From assembly GCA_964497855.1 (NCBI GenBank), contig CAZCFM010000001.1, positions 30,618 to 94,617 on the forward strand: 64,000 bases of DNA. Reading direction: 5' to 3'. Below are positions 31,480 to 40,009 of the stretch, one piece after another. The notes under the pieces are model-generated. The model was not told the DNA's origin. It saw nothing but the letters and a program-made list of their open reading frames with translations, and made no database searches. The position numbers and the translations under genes were made by a program. Numbering within the stretch: the stretch's first letter is position 1; every line of letters starts with the position of its first letter. This DNA comes from an uncultured Verrucomicrobiota bacterium (GTDB lineage: Bacteria; Verrucomicrobiota; Kiritimatiellia; SS1-B-03-39; UBA6053).

Positions 31480-31597
31480 TCATCGGACGCCAAGCCGCCC
31501 GGAAAACAACGTCTATTTTCACGCGTCCCGCACTTGGCAGTGCTTCCATTCTGTGCTTAAAAGCAAGCATGCAGAACGAGTTGCCGGGAACTGTATC

Positions 31598-34330
31598 ATG
31601 AACGCAGTTGAAATCGAAGAGGCGGTATCCGCCCTGGCGGAGCTTCCCTTTGATGCGGAAACCTTTCCCTACGCGTTTTTGGAGGCGTTCGGGAACAAGA
31701 CCACCACCCTGAAGCGGCTGCAAAGCGGGACCAGCAATCAGTCGGACCTGCCGGGCGGGGTTTTGCAGCGCAACAACATCCACATCACGACGTGTGCGGC
31801 GGGCGAGGTAGCCACGACCCTGAACTCCCTGCGGGAAAGCCCCGCCACCGCTAAACAGAAGGCCAAGTTCATTCTGGCCACCGACGGCGAAAGCTTCGAG
31901 GCCGAGGATCTGGCCGGCGGCGAAACCGTGGCCTGCGCCTACAGGGATTTCCCCGACCACTTCGGTTTTTTTCTGCCCCTGGCCGGGATCAGCACCGTCA
32001 AACAGATCCGTGAAAACGCCTTCGACATCAAGGCCACCAGCCGCCTGAACCGCCTGTACCTGGAACTGATCAAAGACAATCCCGAGTGGGGAAAAGAGGC
32101 GCGGCGGCACGACATGAACCACTTCATGGCCCGCCTGATTTTCTGCTTTTTCGCGGAAGACACCGATATTTTTACCGGCGGCTGCCTCTTCACCGACACC
32201 GTGGAGCAGATGAGCGCGCGGGACGCCTCCAACACCCACGAGGTGATCTCGGAAATCTTCCGGTCCATGGCCACCGCCATCGGGGAGCGCAAAAGCGCTG
32301 GACTCCCCCGCTGGGCGGACGCCTTTCCCTACGTGAACGGCGGACTGTTCTCCGGGTCGTCCGAGGTGCCGCGCTTCAGTAAGTTTGCGAAAGCCCACCT
32401 TCGCCAGATCGGAACCCTCGACTGGACCAAAATCAACCCCGACATCTTCGGGTCCATGATTCAGGCCGTGGCCGACGACGAGGAGCGCGGGGCCCTGGGC
32501 ATGCACTACACCAGCGTGCCGAACATCCTCAAGGTGCTAAACCCCCTCTTTCTCGACGATTTGCGCGAAAAACTGGAGGAGGCGGGCGACAACAAGCGTA
32601 AACTCCTCAACCTCCGCAACCGCATGGCCCGCATCCGGGTCTTCGACCCCGCCTGCGGCTCCGGGAACTTTCTGGTCATCGCCTACAAGGAAATGCGGGC
32701 CATCGAGGCGGAGATCAACCGACGGCGCGGGGAAACCAACCGCCGCAGCGACCTGCCGCTCACCAACTACCGCGGCATCGAACTGCGCGATTTCTCGGCG
32801 GAGATCGCCCGACTCGCCCTCGTCATCGCCCAATACCAGTGCGACGTGCTTTACCTCGGCCAGAAAGAGGCCCTCGCCGTCTTTCTCCCCCTTGAAGCCA
32901 ACAACTGGATCACCTGCGGCAACGCCCTCCGCCTCGACTGGCTCAGCATCTGCCCCCCCACCGGCACCGGCGTCAAACTCCGCTCCGACGATCTCTTCGA
33001 CACCCCCCACGACCAGGCTGAAATCGACTTCCAAAACGAGGGAGGGGAGACCTATATCTGCGGGAATCCGCCTTTTATTGGCACGAGGAAACAAACCGAT
33101 GAACAAAAAAACGATTTAAAATCTGTATTTGCATCACTCACTGAGCACTGGAAAAATGTCGATTATGTAGGCGCTTGGCTCGTTAAAGCAGCTGAATATA
33201 ATAAAAATACATTTGCGCCATTTGCATTCGTTGCCACAAATAGTTTATGTCAAGGCCAGCAGGTTTCAATTACGTGGCGCATTCTCTTGAAAATGGGCTT
33301 TCGCATACGCTTTGCCCATACTTCCTTCATTTGGTCGAACTTAGCTGCAAACAAGGCGGGTGTGACCGTGGTTGTTATAGGTATAGACAACCGATGTACG
33401 GGAAACCGTATCATTTTCGATTCTGACAATATTCGGGTTGTTGAAAACATTAACCCTTATCTAACAGAGCACAAAGTTGACTACATACCTTCCAGTAGAA
33501 GACCCATTTTCATTAATGAATATATGGATTATGGTGTTTACTATTCAAAATCATCAGGGTTGATTTTACGACCAGACGAAGCATCTTCTTTAATAAGAAA
33601 CGGACTAGATAATTCATTAATAAAGAAATTTTTAGGCTCCTCGGAATTTATTAACGGAAAAGAACGATATTGCCTTTGGGTACAGGATACCGACCTTCAT
33701 CGAATTACCAAAATTCCAGAAGTCTTGGCCCGCATTGAATCAGTCAGGAAGGATCGACTAGATACCCGAGATAAATCCGTAAATAAACTCGCTTCAAAAC
33801 CCCACCAATTCCGTGAAATTAAGGGTGAAGAAAATGTAAAAATTCTAATTCCGATCGTTTCATCGGAAAACAGATCCCATCTGCCTGTCGGAATGGCTAA
33901 TGGCAGCGTAATTCCTACAAATAAGGCGTTTTTCATTGGAAATCCACCGTTATGGTGCCTCGCTATACTTTCTTCTCGCATCCACCTTACATGGATTGCC
34001 ACAGTCTGTGGACGAATGAGAACGGATTTCTCCTACTCCAACACCCTTGGCTGGAACACCTTTCCGGTGCCGTCGTTGACGGAGCAGAACAAGCGGGATT
34101 TGACGCGCTGTGCGGAGGAGATTCTGCTGGTGCGGGAGGCGCATTTTCCGGCGACCATCGCGGACCTGTACGACCCGGAGGCGATGCCCGACGATCTGCG
34201 GGCGGCGCACGAGCGCAACGACGAGACCCTGGAGCGCATCTACATCGGCCGCCGCTTCAAAAACGACACCGAGCGCCTCGAAAAGCTTTTTGAGATGTAC
34301 ACGAAGATGACGGGGGGAAAACATGTCTGA
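31598..34330 (+). CDS. MmeI/YeeA-family N6-adenine DNA methyltransferase (Type IIL-like architecture, N-terminal nuclease motif not recognisable)
   Basis: RLIFCFFAEDTDIF, FPYVNGGLF, INPDIFGSMIQAV, GMHYTSVPNILKVLNPLFLD, FDPACGSGNFLVIAY (SAM motif I), ICGNPPFIG (motif IV). C-terminal FPATIADLYDP..MPDDLRAAHERND resembles the MmeI C-terminal domain. Start at MNAVEIEE (ATG 31598). Confidence 0.88.
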   Translation: MNAVEIEEAVSALAELPFDAETFPYAFLEAFGNKTTTLKRLQSGTSNQSDLPGGVLQRNNIHITTCAAGEVATTLNSLRESPATAKQKAKFILATDGESFEAEDLAGGETVACAYRDFPDHFGFFLPLAGISTVKQIRENAFDIKATSRLNRLYLELIKDNPEWGKEARRHDMNHFMARLIFCFFAEDTDIFTGGCLFTDTVEQMSARDASNTHEVISEIFRSMATAIGERKSAGLPRWADAFPYVNGGLFSGSSEVPRFSKFAKAHLRQIGTLDWTKINPDIFGSMIQAVADDEERGALGMHYTSVPNILKVLNPLFLDDLREKLEEAGDNKRKLLNLRNRMARIRVFDPACGSGNFLVIAYKEMRAIEAEINRRRGETNRRSDLPLTNYRGIELRDFSAEIARLALVIAQYQCDVLYLGQKEALAVFLPLEANNWITCGNALRLDWLSICPPTGTGVKLRSDDLFDTPHDQAEIDFQNEGGETYICGNPPFIGTRKQTDEQKNDLKSVFASLTEHWKNVDYVGAWLVKAAEYNKNTFAPFAFVATNSLCQGQQVSITWRILLKMGFRIRFAHTSFIWSNLAANKAGVTVVVIGIDNRCTGNRIIFDSDNIRVVENINPYLTEHKVDYIPSSRRPIFINEYMDYGVYYSKSSGLILRPDEASSLIRNGLDNSLIKKFLGSSEFINGKERYCLWVQDTDLHRITKIPEVLARIESVRKDRLDTRDKSVNKLASKPHQFREIKGEENVKILIPIVSSENRSHLPVGMANGSVIPTNKAFFIGNPPLWCLAILSSRIHLTWIATVCGRMRTDFSYSNTLGWNTFPVPSLTEQNKRDLTRCAEEILLVREAHFPATIADLYDPEAMPDDLRAAHERNDETLERIYIGRRFKNDTERLEKLFEMYTKMTGGKHV
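33065..34030 (+). other. AT-rich mosaic segment inside the methyltransferase gene, covering the region after motif IV (presumed target-recognition domain)
   Basis: Composition switches abruptly just after the GNPPF codons (about 33060) to visibly AT-rich codons (aaa, att, aat, tta), and switches back near 34030 (..SYSNTLGWNTFPVP). The reading frame stays intact. Confidence 0.7.
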
Positions 34331-34503
34331 CGTGATTTTGTACACCACCGAGGATGGGAAGACACGCATCGACCTGCGTGTGGAGGGCGGGACCGTCTGG
34401 CTTCATCAGTTGGAGATTGCGGAGTTGTTCCAGACTTCCAAGCAAAACGTCAGTCTGCATGTTCGTAATATATTGAAAGATGGTGAGTTAGACGAATCGG
34501 CAA

Positions 34504-34524
34504 CTGTCAAGAAATCCTTGACAG
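34504..34524. repeat. palindrome CTGTCAAG-aaatc-CTTGACAG (copy 1 of a direct pair)
   Basis: 8-bp arms. Related copy 53 nt downstream. Located exactly where RhuM homology breaks off. Confidence 0.6.
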
Positions 34525-34558
34525 TTCAGATACCTCGCTTCCGAATGTTATCACCAGT

Positions 34559-34579
34559 TGTCAAGGAATCCTTGACAAC
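34559..34579. repeat. palindrome TTGTCAAGGA-a-TCCTTGACAA (copy 2)
   Basis: Perfect 10-bp arms around a single central base. Shares the TGTCAAG.AATCCTTGACA core with copy 1. Confidence 0.6.
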
Positions 34580-34633
34580 TCATCGCTCCAATTCCCGTTG
34601 GACTCGTTTGGAAATATATTGCAAGGATGCCGC

Positions 34634-36040
34634 ATGACTACCACTCAGCAAGTTGATGTATGGCTTCAAGTGAGAAAAGAGACCCGTACCCTTGAGTTTA
34701 AGGAGGCGAAAACGCAGTACGATTTCCGAAAACTCTGCAAGTATTGCGTGGCCATTGCGAATGAATCCGGAGGATTTTTGGTGCTGGGCGTGACCAACAA
34801 TCCTCCCCGGAAGGTGGTGGGCAGCGCGGCGTTCCAAAATACGGAGGAAACAGCTTCCAAACTGTTTCAGACACTTGGGTTCCGTGTTGACGTTGAGGAG
34901 GTGGATCATCCGGATGGACGGGTGGTGGTATTCCGGCTCCCGGGTCGCCCCCGGGGTACCGCCTATTCTTTTGAGGGCGCGTATTGGATGCGGGTAGGAG
35001 AGGAACTCCAGCCGATGTCGGAAGATCGGCTACGTGCTATTTTCACGGAAGGTCAGCCCGATTGGCTGTCGCTTCCGGCTGCTCCTCCGGTTTCCGCCCA
35101 GGAGGTTGTTCAGTTTTTGGATACTCAGAGTTTTTTTGATCTGCTGAAACTGCCGTATCCCGCCGATCAGCGGGGCGTGCTCGGACGGCTAGTGGAGGAG
35201 CGCTTGATTGCAGAGGCAACGGGTGGGTATGAGATCAGCAATTTGGCGGCAGTATTACTGGCAAAAGATTTAAATGCCTTTGAGGGCCTTTCCCGCAAAG
35301 CGTCACGGGTGGTGGTGTATCGTGGAGAGGACAAGCTCCACACCAAAACGGATAAGACAGGCGCCAAGGGATACGCGGTTGGATTCCAAGGCCTGGTGGA
35401 ATATGTGATGGGGATGCTTCCTCAGAATGAGGTGATCGAGAAGGCTCTGCGGGTGGAGAGTAAATTACTGCCGGAAGTGGTCATTCGCGAGCTTTTGGCC
35501 AATGCCCTGATTCATCAGGACTTCGAATGTGGCGGGGGATGCCCGATGGTGGAGATTTATTCAAACCGGGTGGAAATCAGCAATCCCGGCGAACCTATCG
35601 TGCCGGTGGAGCGGTTTATTGATGGCTATCAGTCGCGTAATGAGCGACTAGCGGATTTGATGCGTCGATTTGGGATTTGCGAGGAAAAAAGCAGCGGGAT
35701 CGACCAGGTAATTGGAGCGGCGGAAGCGCATCAGCTCCCGGCTCCGGATTTTCAGGTGGGATATCAACGGACGATTGTGATCTTGTATGGCCCACGTCCT
35801 TTCCGTCTCATGGACCGGAGTGACCGTATTCGCGCCTGCTATCAGCATTGCGCTCTGCAATGGGTACTTCGGCAACAGATGACGAATCAATCCCTTCGAG
35901 AACGATTCGGTGTGTCAGATAGCAGTACAAATTCTGTCTCACAGATTATCACCGCCACCATCGAGGCGGGTTTAATCAAACCCAACCCCAGCATAGCTCC
36001 CTCCCGAAAGTACGCCCGCTACCTGCCCATTTGGGCATGA
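34634..36040 (+). CDS. Schlafen/AlbA_2 domain plus HATPase_c_4 'putative DNA-binding ATPase/transcriptional regulator' (COG2865-like)
   Basis: N-terminal LEFKEAKTQYDFRKLCKYCVAIANESGGFLVLGV (AlbA_2/divergent AAA-4). Middle VIRELLANALIHQDF..GGCPMVEIYSNRVEISNPG (HATPase_c_4). C-terminal wHTH-like tail. Start MTTTQQ (ATG 34634). Confidence 0.8.
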   Translation: MTTTQQVDVWLQVRKETRTLEFKEAKTQYDFRKLCKYCVAIANESGGFLVLGVTNNPPRKVVGSAAFQNTEETASKLFQTLGFRVDVEEVDHPDGRVVVFRLPGRPRGTAYSFEGAYWMRVGEELQPMSEDRLRAIFTEGQPDWLSLPAAPPVSAQEVVQFLDTQSFFDLLKLPYPADQRGVLGRLVEERLIAEATGGYEISNLAAVLLAKDLNAFEGLSRKASRVVVYRGEDKLHTKTDKTGAKGYAVGFQGLVEYVMGMLPQNEVIEKALRVESKLLPEVVIRELLANALIHQDFECGGGCPMVEIYSNRVEISNPGEPIVPVERFIDGYQSRNERLADLMRRFGICEEKSSGIDQVIGAAEAHQLPAPDFQVGYQRTIVILYGPRPFRLMDRSDRIRACYQHCALQWVLRQQMTNQSLRERFGVSDSSTNSVSQIITATIEAGLIKPNPSIAPSRKYARYLPIWA

Positions 36041-36188
36041 ATCTTATTTCATCGCAACCGGCATTTCAGGGAAAGCAAAAACCTAACATCTTGCAAATGA
36101 ACACTTTCTTATTTTGTTTTCAACGGTACTTCCCGACGGGAGACCTGTCGGTTGACTCAATCCCGCCCCTGTGTAAAGAGAGCATTTT

Positions 36189-38246
36189 ATGACCCATTCC
36201 CTGAAAACATTTCCTTCTGTGTCGGTGACCTACGCGGGCGACGGCGGGTCGGTCCGCGCCAATGAGCTGGGGATGCGGCCGATGCAGGAGCGGGCGTATC
36301 AGAAGCGGGGGGAGCAATACCTGCTGATCAAGTCGCCGCCGGCTTCGGGGAAAAGCCGGGCACTGATGTTCATCGCTCTGGACAAGCTGGAGAATCAGGG
36401 TCTGAAAAAGGCCCTGATCGTGGTGCCGGAGAAGACCATCGGGGCCAGTTTTGCGGATGAACCGCTTTCGCGTTTCGGTTTCTGGGCGGATTGGAGGGTG
36501 GAACCGCGCTGGAATCTCTGCAACGCTCCCGGCGAAGATGGAGGCAAGGTGGAGTCGGTGCGGGTGTTTCTGGAGAGCGGGGATCGGGTGATGGTGTGCA
36601 CACACGCGACCTTCCGTTTCGCGGTGGACCGCTTCGGCGTGGGAGCCTTCGATGACTGTTTGATCGCGGTGGACGAGTTTCACCATGTGTCCTCGAATCC
36701 CGATAACAAGCTGGGAACGCACCTGGCGGAGTTTATTTCGCGCGGGAAAACCCATATCGTGGCGATGACGGGATCGTATTTCCGGGGCGACGCCGAGGCG
36801 GTGCTCCATCCCACGGACGAGGCCCGCTTTGAAACGGTGACCTACACCTACTATGAGCAGTTGAGCGGCTATGAGTATCTGAAACAACTGGACATGGGCT
36901 ATTACTTTTATGCGGGAAGCTATGCGGTTGAGATTCTGCAGGTGCTGAATCCGGAGGAGAAAACCATCGTCCACATCCCCAACGTCAACGCCCGCGAAAG
37001 CACCAAGGACAAAATCCGCGAGGTGGAGCACATTCTGGAGGAGCTGGGCGAGTGGCAGGGGGCGGATCCGGCGACCGGATTTCAGTTGGTGAAAACCCGC
37101 GAAGGCCGTCTTTTGAAAATCGCGGATCTTGTGGAGGATGATCCCCGCAAGCGGGACAAGGTGACGGCGGCGCTGAAAGATCCATCGCAGAAGAACAATC
37201 GCGACCATGTGGACATCATCATTGCCCTGGGCATGGCCAAGGAGGGCTTTGACTGGATCTGGTGCGAGCACGCGCTGACGGTCGGGTACCGTTCGAGTTT
37301 GACGGAGATTGTGCAGATCATCGGGCGGGCCACGCGGGACGCGCCGGGCAAAACGCGCTCCCGTTTCACCAATCTGATCGCCGAGCCGGACGCCGCCGAG
37401 GAGGCGGTCACCGAGGCGGTGAACGACACGCTGAAGGCGATTGCGGCCAGCCTGCTGATGGAACAGGTTCTGGCGCCGCGCTTTGAGTTCCGTCCCAAAC
37501 GACCGGAGACCGGGCCGAGTCCGGGATACGATTATGGTCCGGGAGGCTATCAGGCGGAGCGCTGCAATGTGGGTTATGATCCCGCATCCGGCAAAATTCA
37601 GTTGGAACTCAAGGGGCTGGCGGAACCGGCCAGTCCGGAAGCCTCCCGCATTTGCAGGGAGGATCTTACCGAGGTGGTGACGGCTTTTGTGCAGCAGAAA
37701 GGGAATCTGGAGCGGGGGCTCTTTGACGAGGAGCTGGTGCCGGAAGAGCTGACCCAGATTCGCATGGGGAAAATCATCAAAGAGAAATATCCCGAACTGA
37801 CACCCGAGGACCAGGAGGCGGTCAGGCAACACGCGGTGGTGGCGTTGAATGTGATCCAACAGGCGAAAGGGTTCCTGTTTCAGGACAGCAGCTCTCCGCC
37901 GGAGAAAGCGAACACCTCTCTGATTGACGGGGTGAGGCGATTCGCCATGGATGTCCGGGATCTGGACGTGGATTTGATCGACCGCATCAATCCTTTTGGC
38001 GAGGCCTACGCGATTTTAGCGAAATCCATGAACCCGGAGCGGCTGCGGCGTCTGCACGAAATCATCGGGGCCAAACGCGTGAGTCTTTCCTTGGAGGAGT
38101 CCCGGGACTTGGCCAAGCGCGCGTTGCGTTTCAAGCAGGAGCGGGGGCGAGTGCCGTCGATGACGGCGGCGGATCCATGGGAAAGGCGGATGGCGGAGGG
38201 TGTGGCTTATCTGCAACAGAAAGTCCGGGAGCAATCCAATGGCTAA
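36189..38246 (+). CDS. SF2 (DEAD/DEAH-like, ResIII-type) helicase
   Basis: Walker A IKSPPASGKSRAL, DEFH box IAVDEFHHV, MTGSYFRGD (motif III-like), ALGMAKEGFDW and QIIGRATRD (motif VI). About 250 aa C-terminal extension. Confidence 0.85.
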   Translation: MTHSLKTFPSVSVTYAGDGGSVRANELGMRPMQERAYQKRGEQYLLIKSPPASGKSRALMFIALDKLENQGLKKALIVVPEKTIGASFADEPLSRFGFWADWRVEPRWNLCNAPGEDGGKVESVRVFLESGDRVMVCTHATFRFAVDRFGVGAFDDCLIAVDEFHHVSSNPDNKLGTHLAEFISRGKTHIVAMTGSYFRGDAEAVLHPTDEARFETVTYTYYEQLSGYEYLKQLDMGYYFYAGSYAVEILQVLNPEEKTIVHIPNVNARESTKDKIREVEHILEELGEWQGADPATGFQLVKTREGRLLKIADLVEDDPRKRDKVTAALKDPSQKNNRDHVDIIIALGMAKEGFDWIWCEHALTVGYRSSLTEIVQIIGRATRDAPGKTRSRFTNLIAEPDAAEEAVTEAVNDTLKAIAASLLMEQVLAPRFEFRPKRPETGPSPGYDYGPGGYQAERCNVGYDPASGKIQLELKGLAEPASPEASRICREDLTEVVTAFVQQKGNLERGLFDEELVPEELTQIRMGKIIKEKYPELTPEDQEAVRQHAVVALNVIQQAKGFLFQDSSSPPEKANTSLIDGVRRFAMDVRDLDVDLIDRINPFGEAYAILAKSMNPERLRRLHEIIGAKRVSLSLEESRDLAKRALRFKQERGRVPSMTAADPWERRMAEGVAYLQQKVREQSNG

Positions 38247-39435
38247 GAAACAAATCACGGACGAAGATATCGACCTCTTGAATGAGCTGGAGGTGGACAC
38301 CGCACCGGATGCGAAGGATGCTGTTTCCGCGAGAGAACAGCGCATTCTTGCGGGCTTTGAGGAGATTGTGAACTTTGCCAAGGAGCACGGGCGTGTGCCA
38401 CAGCATGGGGAAGACCGGGATATTTTTGAACGGATCTATGCCGTGAGGCTGGATCGTATCCAGGCTTCGGGGGAGTGCCGGGAAATCCTGAAAGACAAAG
38501 ATATCCTTGGGCTGCTCTCGGAAAATCACGGAGGGGCAAGCCTGGTCAGGGAGGTCCCGGAAGAGGATGTGGCGATATTAGAGGCCTTGGGCGTGGAGAA
38601 AGCGCCGGGAAGCGATATTGCCCAATTGGCGTATGTGCGATCCCGCGAGGAAATCCAGTCGGCGGAAGAGGTTGCCCAAAGATTGCCCTGCAAGGATTTC
38701 GACCGGTTTCAACCCGTCTTCAAAATCGTTCAGACCGACCTGGACTGCGGAACACGGCAAACGGTGAAATATCAGGACAATGCGGAAGTGAAGGTCGGAG
38801 ATTTTTTCATTCTGGATGGACAGAAAGTGCTGGTGGCCGCGATGGGGGCACCCACGGTTTCCACCTATGGTCGTCCCAACCCCCGCTTGCGCGTTATTTA
38901 TGATAATGGGACTGAAAGTGATCTGCTGTTGCGCTCCCTGCAGAGGGCACTCAACAAAGACAAGGCCAGCAGAAGAATCGCCGAAGCTGGATACGGGCCA
39001 TTGTTTGCGGGTGAATCATCAGACGGAGACCTCGACGCGGGAACGATTTACGTTCTGCGCAGCCTTTCCAATCATCCTTTTATCCAGCAAAACCGGGACG
39101 TGATCCATAAAATCGGGGTCACGGGCGGGAGTGTCGAAAACCGAATCGCCCACGCGGAAAAGGATCCAACGTTTCTACTCGCGCCCGTGGAAGTTGTCGG
39201 ATCGTATAAACTGGCGAATCTCAACCGTTCCAAGCTGGAGAACCTTTTGCACAAATTCCTCTCCCCTGCCCGGCTCGACATGGAGCTGCAGGACCGTTTC
39301 GGTTTTGATGTGAAGCCCAGAGAGTGGTTTCTCGTTCCACTCCCGCTGATTGAGGAAACCGTCCAGCGCATCCTGGACGGAAGCCTCAGCAGGTGCCGCT
39401 ATGACCCAACGCTGGCACAATTGGTTCCACAATGA
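38239..39435 (+). CDS. T5orf172 / GIY-YIG-like nuclease domain protein
   Basis: C-terminal GTIYVLRSLSNHPF...VIHKIGVTGGSVENRIAHAEKD...LHKFL...REWFLVPLPLIEETVQRI is the T5orf172 (MUG113) pattern. The ATG overlaps the helicase stop by 8 nt (ATGGCTAA). Confidence 0.8.
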   Translation: MAKKQITDEDIDLLNELEVDTAPDAKDAVSAREQRILAGFEEIVNFAKEHGRVPQHGEDRDIFERIYAVRLDRIQASGECREILKDKDILGLLSENHGGASLVREVPEEDVAILEALGVEKAPGSDIAQLAYVRSREEIQSAEEVAQRLPCKDFDRFQPVFKIVQTDLDCGTRQTVKYQDNAEVKVGDFFILDGQKVLVAAMGAPTVSTYGRPNPRLRVIYDNGTESDLLLRSLQRALNKDKASRRIAEAGYGPLFAGESSDGDLDAGTIYVLRSLSNHPFIQQNRDVIHKIGVTGGSVENRIAHAEKDPTFLLAPVEVVGSYKLANLNRSKLENLLHKFLSPARLDMELQDRFGFDVKPREWFLVPLPLIEETVQRILDGSLSRCRYDPTLAQLVPQ

Positions 39436-39545
39436 GCGAAAACCCAGCGACCCAACCCACCTGGCGCATCCATGACTGCGGGCGATTGCCGAAGGGTGTT
39501 TGGGTGGTGCGTGAGCCTCAAAATCTTTCGCCGTGGGTGTCGGAC

Positions 39546-39749
39546 GGGGTTGAAACCCCCAGGTCCATGAATCGTCGCTACGCGACGCGAGGAAAAGACG
39601 GGCACGGGGTCCGTGGTTTGAAAACCACGGCTATTCGTGGGACTGTCGCTACGCGACAAACGGCATCCCCTCAGGGAGCCCGCATGGATTTGTGTGCCAT
39701 GGATGGCACACAAATCGAATAGCGTGCAACACATGGCCACAAATCGAAT
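39546..39749. repeat. cluster of hairpins and short direct repeats in a ~570-bp non-coding tract at the island's right edge
   Basis: GGGGT-tgaa-ACCCC (39546-39559). CCGTGGTT-tgaa-AACCACGG (39611-39630). GTCGCTACGCGAC twice (39574-39586, 39645-39657). 12-bp perfect stem GATTTGTGTGCC-atggat-GGCACACAAATC (39687-39716). CACAAATCGAAT twice (39709-39720, 39738-39749). Confidence 0.65.
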
Positions 39750-40009
39750 CGGACCCGGTTTTCGGAACGTTCAGCAGCCACCCAAACAGATCTTGATTCC
39801 GCAGGGATGCGAAGCAAATTTCATGCATGGTCGCGCCCTTTGAAACCGATGACGATGCTGTCGCGCTGGAGAAGCTGAATCAGCAGCTCCCGCAGATGAC
39901 GGAAGCCTACAACCCGCAGCCGATTCCGGACATTGGCGGTTTTACGCCGAACAGCCTGTTCCGCTTGGGGCTTCGCCACAGGCAGGAATATCTGTGTCAA
40001 AAGGAGTGC

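Follow-up and report, generated by a model that had tools for sequence, protein, structure and literature searches.

MmeI proper, a bifunctional Type IIL enzyme, carries an N-terminal PD-ExK nuclease with the motif D70...E80-x-K82 (PMC4833311). A second set of MmeI homologs is without PD-ExK, differs in the first 100 amino acids (aa) and is invariably flanked by genes for a helicase of the YeeB type and a GIY-YIG protein of the YeeC type (Morgan et al. 2009, PMC2731913); the T5orf172/GIY-YIG-like YeeC partner was described in the same paper and in PMC9973331. The type member of this second set is YeeA of B. subtilis, now DnmA (PMC9973331; also PMC7261158), which methylates GACGAG (PMC9973331). 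A three-gene system of this kind would be expected to place m6A on one strand of a non-palindromic site and to act in restriction or defence. The exchange of specificity domains is already classical for the Type I hsdS genes and was anticipated for the MmeI family (PMC2731914, section 18). In Microcystis aeruginosa PCC7806 the homologs IPF4888 and IPF5080 are 98.5% identical outside the target-recognition domain (TRD) and 55% identical inside it, and this pattern was read as different TRDs acquired by recombination (Morgan & Luyten 2009, PMC2731914, section 18). The gene studied here lies at 31598..34330 on the forward (+) strand of a stretch of 64,000 nucleotides (nt) from an uncultured Verrucomicrobiota bacterium (contig CAZCFM010000001.1), in the following called the window. 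It codes for a yeeA/dnmA-type MmeI-family N6-adenine DNA methyltransferase and specificity protein of 910 aa and contains an AT-rich block of 957 nt. An earlier note, made from the letters of the sequence, had claimed that this block is a cassette which was exchanged by recombination between conserved flanks and which carries the specificity determinants, and the analysis supported this core claim. The AT-rich block is very probably a complete DNA-reading module that was put into a GC-rich, conserved backbone by recombination, from a background of lower G+C content (GC).

The open reading frame (ORF) extended to 34330 without interruption from either of two starts, 31598 or an alternative GTG at 31553, the latter giving a protein of 925 aa. 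The 910-aa protein was identical to database protein P0001. All five MmeI domains were present in order and above the Pfam gathering cut-off of 27 that applies to each of them (MmeI_N, 122 bits; MmeI_hel, 88; MmeI_Mtase, 370; MmeI_TRD, 233; MmeI_C, 67), with E-values of 6.8e-111 for MmeI_Mtase and 2.4e-69 for MmeI_TRD. PADLOC matched the protein to REase_MTase_IIG, a Type IIG restriction/methyltransferase enzyme, at 1.7e-271. The motifs of a gamma-class N6-adenine methyltransferase were read in the translation (motif I, FDPACGSGNF; motif IV, NPPF) and were invariant in an alignment of 25 sequences, and residues C488-G-N-P-P492 were invariant across the family alignment. MmeI itself (PDB 5HR4, PMC4833311) was matched with E = 1.8e-137. 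The window protein is homologous to it from the spacer to the C-terminus, shares the NPPF of motif IV and can be aligned at every TRD contact position, whereas the alignment starts only at query residue 88 and the first ~87 residues cannot be aligned. No [DE]xK motif was found in the first 120 aa, and a phmmer search with the N-terminal 141 aa alone did not retrieve MmeI; the absence of PD-ExK was concluded from the motif search and from the description in the literature. Unlike MmeI, the protein is thus without the D70...E80-x-K82 motif, and any cleavage would presumably occur via YeeB/YeeC.

Two genes on the same strand further downstream matched the described partners. A yeeB-like gene for a DEAD/ResIII helicase of 685 aa (36189..38246, +; Pfam DEAD and ResIII) was followed by a yeeC-like gene for a T5orf172/MUG113 (GIY-YIG-related) protein of 398 aa, a putative nuclease partner (38239..39435, +; Pfam T5orf172 and MUG113). 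At 86 searched loci, all with a yeeA-type homolog, the yeeB-like helicase was found 80 times and the yeeC-like T5orf172 gene 77 times, and one database relative of the N-terminal flank carries the name 'methylase subunit YeeA'. The locus therefore resembles YeeA/DnmA-YeeB-YeeC in its MmeI-like spacer, methyltransferase, TRD and C-terminal domains, in its divergent N-terminus without PD-ExK and in its DEAD helicase and T5orf172/GIY-YIG-like genes, but differs in an accessory segment of 1.8 kb which parts both partner genes from yeeA. The likeness to YeeA/DnmA is known from domains, neighbours and the published description and not from an alignment to B. subtilis YeeA. Because the missing PD-ExK, the divergent N-terminus and the helicase and T5orf172 neighbours fit the description in PMC2731913, the gene is assigned from its sequence as the putative methyltransferase/specificity subunit of a YeeA(DnmA)-YeeB-YeeC three-gene system. 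What had been called an MmeI-family enzyme is a homolog of MmeI, but one of the YeeA/DnmA subclass and not a bifunctional MmeI.

An AT-rich block between conserved flanks

GC in sliding segments of 200 nt was 0.60-0.65 before the block, 0.34-0.45 between about 33050 and 34000 and 0.60-0.63 after it. The GC at third codon positions (GC3) along the ORF went from 0.80-0.90 to 0.22-0.52 in the block and back to 0.80-0.92. A two-breakpoint likelihood fit that used GC only placed the left edge at 33073. The block (33074-34030) had a GC of 0.399 and a GC3 of 0.33-0.34, compared with a GC3 of about 0.84 in the N-terminal flank; the GC of the N-terminal and C-terminal flanks was 0.618 and 0.607, respectively. 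All other 957-nt segments of the 64 kb had a mean GC of 0.611 with a standard deviation (SD) of 0.038 and a minimum of 0.507, so that the block deviated by z = -5.6, and 33073-34029 was the lowest-GC segment of this length in the whole 64 kb. As GC3 was lower in the block for 17 of 17 amino acids, the step is not an effect of amino acid composition. The abrupt AT-rich block inside one intact ORF, as it had been described by eye, was thus confirmed by sliding GC, by GC3 and by the z value, with a significant step across the gene.

The closest alleles were L001 (protein P0041) and L002-L004 (P0031, from Verrucomicrobia metagenome-assembled genomes, MAGs), for which the DNA was fetched. P0041 and P0031 were the two among 120 full-length homologs that showed the pattern of a swapped cassette. 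In the numbering of the 925-aa form, their identity to the window protein was 95-96% over aa 16-504 and 94% over aa 828-925, but only 40-42% in the block. At the nucleotide level L001-L004 were 92.2-92.5% identical to the window over 31597-33072/33117, 90.5% over 33974/33992-34318 and 88.6-88.9% over yeeB-yeeC (36120-39383), while no nucleotide homology was detectable in the block (33118-33973) or in the segment between yeeA and yeeB (34319-36119). The yeeB-like protein was 96% identical to those of L001-L003. When the three alleles were compared pairwise, the blocks were 37-42% protein-identical and the N-terminal flanks 95-98%. The divergence at four-fold sites was 0.12-0.20 in the flanks and 0.68-0.84, that is saturated, in the block.

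From these comparisons the gene was divided into three parts. The conserved N-terminal backbone (31598..33073, +), delimited by its identity to L001-L004, comprises the N domain, the helical spacer and the methyltransferase motifs up to the NPP of motif IV. The left junction, 33073/33074, lies within GNPPF of this catalytic motif (33062..33076, +) and was placed by the three-allele alignment and by a maximum chi-square (max-chi2) test: the three alleles were identical through GGNAATCCGCC and diverged from the next codon on. The AT-rich exchanged cassette follows (33074..34030, +; aa 493-811), marked by its low GC and the loss of homology to the sister alleles. The conserved C-terminal backbone (34031..34330, +), with the same 90.5% nucleotide identity to L001-L004, begins with SYSNTLGWNTFP and includes the MmeI_C helical bundle. 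The right junction lay between about 33992 and 34031, and near-perfect identity was back at about 34025-34031, at SYSNTLGWN. The max-chi2 values were 766 and 654 with a permutation maximum of 20, which supports two breaks, at 33071-33074 and 33992. The limits of 33065 and 34030 in the earlier note were within a few bases of the composition step and of the three-allele junctions, and its motifs were correctly placed (GNPPF at 33062-33076; SYSNTLGWNTFPVP...LTEQNK from about 34031). Its right edge agreed with the alignment junction, while the max-chi2 break was about 38 nt further upstream.

A short divergent patch was seen in the allele alignment within the helical spacer (32381..32407, +), where the window has KFAKAHLRQ and L001 has KLSRSYLMH. 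Here 15 of 45 nt and 7 of 15 residues differed, and the surrounding flank was 92% identical. The patch may be a micro-conversion tract or a co-adaptation to a new reader module.

Flank and block differed in their nearest relatives. Blocks 63-70% identical to that of the window were found in backbones that were only 76-79% identical. In a nearest-neighbour scan the closest relatives changed at about aa 490 from L001/L002 to other lineages, which were 66-84% identical to the window per 50-aa segment, and changed back at about aa 810. Because distant backbones carry the closest blocks and the nearest backbones carry blocks of 37-42% identity, the histories of block and flanks are incongruent. Intrinsic compositional bias had been expected to show itself as a low-GC segment shared by homologs together with congruent phylogeny; the segment was shared, as described below, but the phylogeny was incongruent. 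Near-identical flanks around an unrelated internal segment, supported breakpoints and incongruent similarity of block and backbone were thus all present in this gene, as is to be looked for in an exchange.

Predicted DNA-contact positions in the block

The block was mapped on MmeI by alignment, with domain limits of 301-620 for the methyltransferase and 621-825 for the TRD (PMC4833311). It corresponded to MmeI residues ~484 to ~810 and therefore to the methyltransferase domain after motif IV and nearly the whole TRD. The event had been described as a swap of the TRD. The TRD is indeed in the swapped unit, but this unit is larger: it starts right after the NPP of motif IV, includes the C-terminal half of the methyltransferase domain and ends at the equivalent of MmeI R810. 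The base contacts of MmeI are made by K487, S488, K489, Y642, K645, A723, F737, Y738, E751, T752, N773, L805, E806, R808 and R810 (PMC4833311), and in the alignment all of these positions fell inside the block, including the minor-groove contact loop K487-K489.

At the 15 contact positions the window protein has T496, R497 and K498; Y645 and Y648; D725; R739 and E740; I753 and V754; N775; and M807, R808, D810 and S812. The corresponding residues are S, K, W; F, M; A; V, Q; R, V; D; and M, R, D, S in L001, and S, K, W; F, H; D; R, D; R, V; D; and L, K, D, R in L002, so that the window differs from both sister alleles at most contact positions. By alignment, the specificity determinants therefore lie inside the exchanged segment and differ between the alleles. 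If the rules of Morgan & Luyten (PMC2731914) are applied, the three alleles, with R or K at 806 and D at 808, should all read G at position 6 of the recognition sequence. The same rules predict G at position 3 for L001 and L002, which have R751 and D773, and something other than G for the window allele, which has I and N at the equivalents of these two residues.

Four other loci (L007-L010, from Smithella, Sneathiella, an Acidobacteriaceae MAG and a Planctomycetaceae MAG) shared the contact residues of the window except for a conservative exchange of L and M at 807. An Acinetobacter block (L018) showed the further differences S496 and I754. These five blocks, from five bacterial lineages, were 56-66% identical overall and had essentially the same 15 contact residues. 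To judge from these residues, the window-type blocks seem to represent one recognition specificity conserved across phyla.

A variable slot in the family and the origin of the block

The family was examined with 80 genomic loci from many phyla together with the window, L001 and L002 (83 members). Identity was narrowly clustered at 0.70-0.85 in the N-terminal flank and ranged from 0.30 to 0.82 in the block, and the two were uncorrelated (r = 0.008). All of the 30 closest backbone pairs, some of them from isolate genomes and with N-terminal flanks 88-98% identical, were mosaic. The median left break of these pairs was at aa 494 (interquartile range, IQR, 492-503) and the median right break at aa 808 (IQR 782-818); a minority of pairs swapped the TRD only, with a left break at aa 582-629. 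The mean GC3 of the family was 0.72 in the N-terminal flank, 0.51 in the block and 0.70 in the C-terminal flank. By regression over the family, C-flank GC3 was 0.97 x N-flank GC3 - 0.01, while block GC3 was 0.52 x N-flank GC3 + 0.12. The window had the most negative residual of the latter regression, -0.22 (SD 0.079, about 2.8 SD), followed by L001 and L002. Relaxed selection was considered as a cause of the low GC3 and rejected, because block columns that are at least 90% conserved, and every amino acid, were also low.

A protein search with the N-terminal flank only gave fragments of at most 850 aa and at most 81% identity and did not return P0001, P0041 or P0031 themselves. Many of the database homologs of this flank (P0241-P0360) are cut short at 489-850 aa, in the variable block or close to it, perhaps because strain-level polymorphism of the block interrupts metagenome assemblies at this point.

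Since the blocks were unrelated in 30 of 30 pairs, the left junction was pinned after NPPF and the slopes were 0.52 and 0.97, the data favour, if only slightly, the view that the block of the window is the current occupant of a reader-module slot with fixed boundaries, which YeeA/DnmA-type systems of many phyla refill from a common AT-shifted pool before the sequence has time to ameliorate. Mobile DNA is generally AT-shifted relative to its hosts, and the pool on which the slot would draw is likewise AT-shifted relative to them.

The most likely mechanism would be that a homolog from a lower-GC background entered the cell and recombined with the resident gene by a double crossover, with one exchange point in the codons of the invariant CGNPP and the second in the stretch that leads up to those of SYSNTLGWN. 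Plasmids would be one possible route for incoming copies, the family being present on 280 PLSDB plasmids. Recognition for modification, and presumably for restriction by YeeB/YeeC as well, would lie in one polypeptide, so that a new module would redirect the two activities together and without a lethal mismatch.

The GC3 of the blocks of L001 and L002 was 0.40-0.41, so that all three alleles had values of 0.33-0.41 in the block, compared with 0.84 in the backbone. As all three blocks are unameliorated, none looks native, and the backbone was refitted more than once since the divergence of the alleles, which is about 0.2 at the four-fold sites of the flanks. The exchange in the window had been called recent from the lack of amelioration; it would be recent only relative to the divergence of the alleles, the sisters being unameliorated as well and no donor above 70% protein identity having been found in the collections searched. 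The whole island from 31607 to 39830, including yeeA, yeeB and yeeC, had zero single-nucleotide polymorphisms (SNPs) compared with strain contig L005. Beyond the island 46 SNPs were found in 5.3 kb upstream and 16 in 3.6 kb downstream, and the neighbouring genes differed by 0.4-0.9% between the strains. An island without SNPs amid this divergence argues that it spread recently as a unit, and it seems to be younger than the divergence of the strains or to have been swept between them. The window, L001 and L002 each have it in a chromosomal context of their own. Silent cassettes or a shufflon were rejected as a source of the block, as no second MmeI-like copy was found in the 64-kb window, no inverted or direct repeats bracketed the block and no recombinase was present within the island.

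Several results weigh against an exchange with a low-GC donor or against parts of it. The best match to the block in a collection of 5.8 billion proteins had 68-70% protein identity; a scan of metagenome contigs with the block gave 37% at best, and tblastn gave 56.7% at best on plasmids (Acidovorax sp. T1 plasmid) and 35% at best in phages. These searches thus identified neither a donor nor a copy of the block with high nucleotide identity in another backbone. Codon identity at identical residues near the junction motifs was 0.36-0.48, with a gene-wide mean of 0.42; recombination anchors under selection at these motifs were rejected, as synonymous identity was not above this mean. The recognition sequence would have changed between the alleles, on the basis of the alignment to MmeI. 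Selection by phages would be a conceivable driver of such changes, but no restriction or phage defence was observed for DnmA-YeeB-YeeC of B. subtilis, while a defence effect was reported for the system of V. crassostreae (PMC9973331). Finally, block GC3 was lower than flank GC3 in 75 of 76 loci, low-GC hosts included, with a mean gap of about 0.21. Because the slot is AT-shifted almost throughout the family, a low-GC donor is not strictly required for part of the step, and the low-GC donor of the earlier note is only partly supported. The residual of the window is still the most extreme of the family.

This family-wide shift is also evidence for an intrinsic bias, by which the DNA-reading region would be AT-rich through selection on DNA or mRNA, codon speed or silencer binding, and no foreign donor would be needed. 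The lower GC3 covered aa 482-811. In 38 high-GC members the block had a GC3 of 0.51-0.56 and the flanks 0.79-0.82 at every conservation class, and, amino acid by amino acid, the drop was seen in 18 of 18 cases among high-GC hosts and in 15 of 18 among low-GC hosts. As a full explanation intrinsic bias is nevertheless unlikely. It leaves unexplained the blocks of 37-42% identity in backbones of 95-98%, the saturated four-fold sites and the affinity of the blocks to those of distant backbones, and the window lies well below the regression that describes the family. It would not predict the reversal at one locus either. An Opitutales MAG (L070, 6001-8736) was the sole locus in which block GC3 (0.75) was higher than flank GC3 (0.57), a mirror of the window, and this reversal argues against a purely intrinsic AT bias. 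An intrinsic AT preference can, however, coexist with exchange as a partial contributor. The direction of the replacement might also be the reverse, the AT-rich block being the older resident, while a relative supplied the GC-rich flanks and yeeB-yeeC by replacement or by homogenising gene conversion. The mobility of the whole island, seen in its different chromosomal contexts and in its lack of SNPs between strains with divergent neighbouring genes, fits such a replacement, and so does a backbone GC3 of 0.84, which is high for the hosts of L001-L004 with a GC of 0.55-0.56. In the window, however, the flanks fit the GC of the host (0.618 vs 0.607) and the block does not, and two flanks and the downstream genes would have had to be replaced with the internal 957 nt spared, which needs more crossovers and this in each of three alleles. 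Replacement in this direction is considered highly improbable.

That the block diverged in place, by diversifying selection or local hypermutation and without any exchange, is hardly credible. Specificity domains are under diversifying selection, and the universal GC-to-AT mutation bias at a raised local rate could give an AT shift. Divergence cannot, however, bring a sequence closer to a non-sister, and because the nearest blocks, with 63-70% identity, sit in backbones of 76-79%, it cannot explain the pattern; moreover, 63 block columns were at least 90% conserved and the boundaries were sharp to within a codon. An assembly chimera, in which reads from two organisms were joined at conserved motifs, was regarded as the least probable of these explanations. 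The window is probably derived from a metagenome, and assemblers can switch between templates at conserved motifs such as those that hold its junctions. Against this, the identical 910-aa protein was present on 4 contigs from different samples and in at least 3 independent metagenome assemblies with different flanking SNPs, and contig L005, with 67 SNPs relative to the window outside the island, kept the same junctions. The sister alleles and the 30 other pairs, some from isolate genomes, had the same architecture. Insertion of a reader module by recombination therefore remains the preferred explanation of the AT-rich block.

The intergenic segment and the relation to known systems

Between yeeA and yeeB the window has another swapped segment (34319..36119, +), with a GC of 0.522 and no nucleotide homology to L001-L003. 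It contains a truncated RhuM-N-like ORF of 104 aa (34323-34637, +), which matched PADLOC PDC-S05 and for which most model hits stopped near aa 70. An AlbA_2/HATPase_c_4 gene, assigned by family matches, occupies 34634-36040 (+). At this position L001-L003 have two other ORFs and a gene whose product, an Eco57I-type methyltransferase, is 957-960 aa long. Similar inserts were found at only about 9-11 of the 86 searched loci. Two direct repeats of 33 nt (34496-34528 and 34550-34582), 54 nt apart and each with the palindrome TTGTCAAGnAATCCTTGACAA, lie just upstream of the AlbA_2 gene, within the tail of the 104-aa ORF, and look like candidate paired operator sites. A perfect inverted repeat of 14 nt, GATTTGTGTGCCAT..ATGGCACACAAATC, is located at 39687-39716 just past yeeC; the homology to L001-L003 ends before it, at 39383, and the SNP-free zone after it, at 39830.

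The mosaic of the window resembles that of IPF4888 and IPF5080 of Microcystis in that near-identical proteins differ only in the specificity region. Unlike the Microcystis case, the unit of the window starts at motif IV and includes half of the methyltransferase domain, and the divergence of 37-42% is deeper. In addition, three alleles occur on one backbone in different genomes, the compositional signature is strong and the pattern recurs throughout the family. The reassortment of TRDs in Type I hsdS and the movement of domains in Type I, IIG and III methyltransferases of Helicobacter (PMC2731914, references 18-19; PMC3983042) are similar in that modules recombine at conserved flanks to give new recognition sequences. 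There the TRDs are half-site modules that belong to a separate S subunit, or domains move inside one genome, whereas the window has a single contiguous reader module in the catalytic polypeptide which is swapped between genomes, with no inverted repeats, recombinase or silent cassettes nearby. What is new is a base-resolved example from the YeeA/DnmA subclass, with a unit that begins at motif IV, three alleles on a single backbone, and a family-wide slot with a compositional footprint. The result extends the existing understanding and overturns nothing.

The gene is a clean natural example of what would be the one-step re-targeting of the specificity subunit of a restriction-modification or defence system, with junctions at the base level and three alleles. 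It defines the exchangeable unit of YeeA/DnmA as the region from NPPF to SYSNTLGWN, which comprises, besides the TRD, half of the methyltransferase domain and the minor-groove loop, and this unit is directly usable for the construction of chimeric enzymes with new specificities. The comparison across phyla suggests that the turnover of specificity outpaces the divergence of the backbone and that its footprint is detectable without annotation. If the slot is indeed refilled from a shared pool, it would represent a natural, pan-bacterial plug-and-play system for the specificity of methylation and restriction, and its compositional signature could be used to detect such slots from raw sequence.

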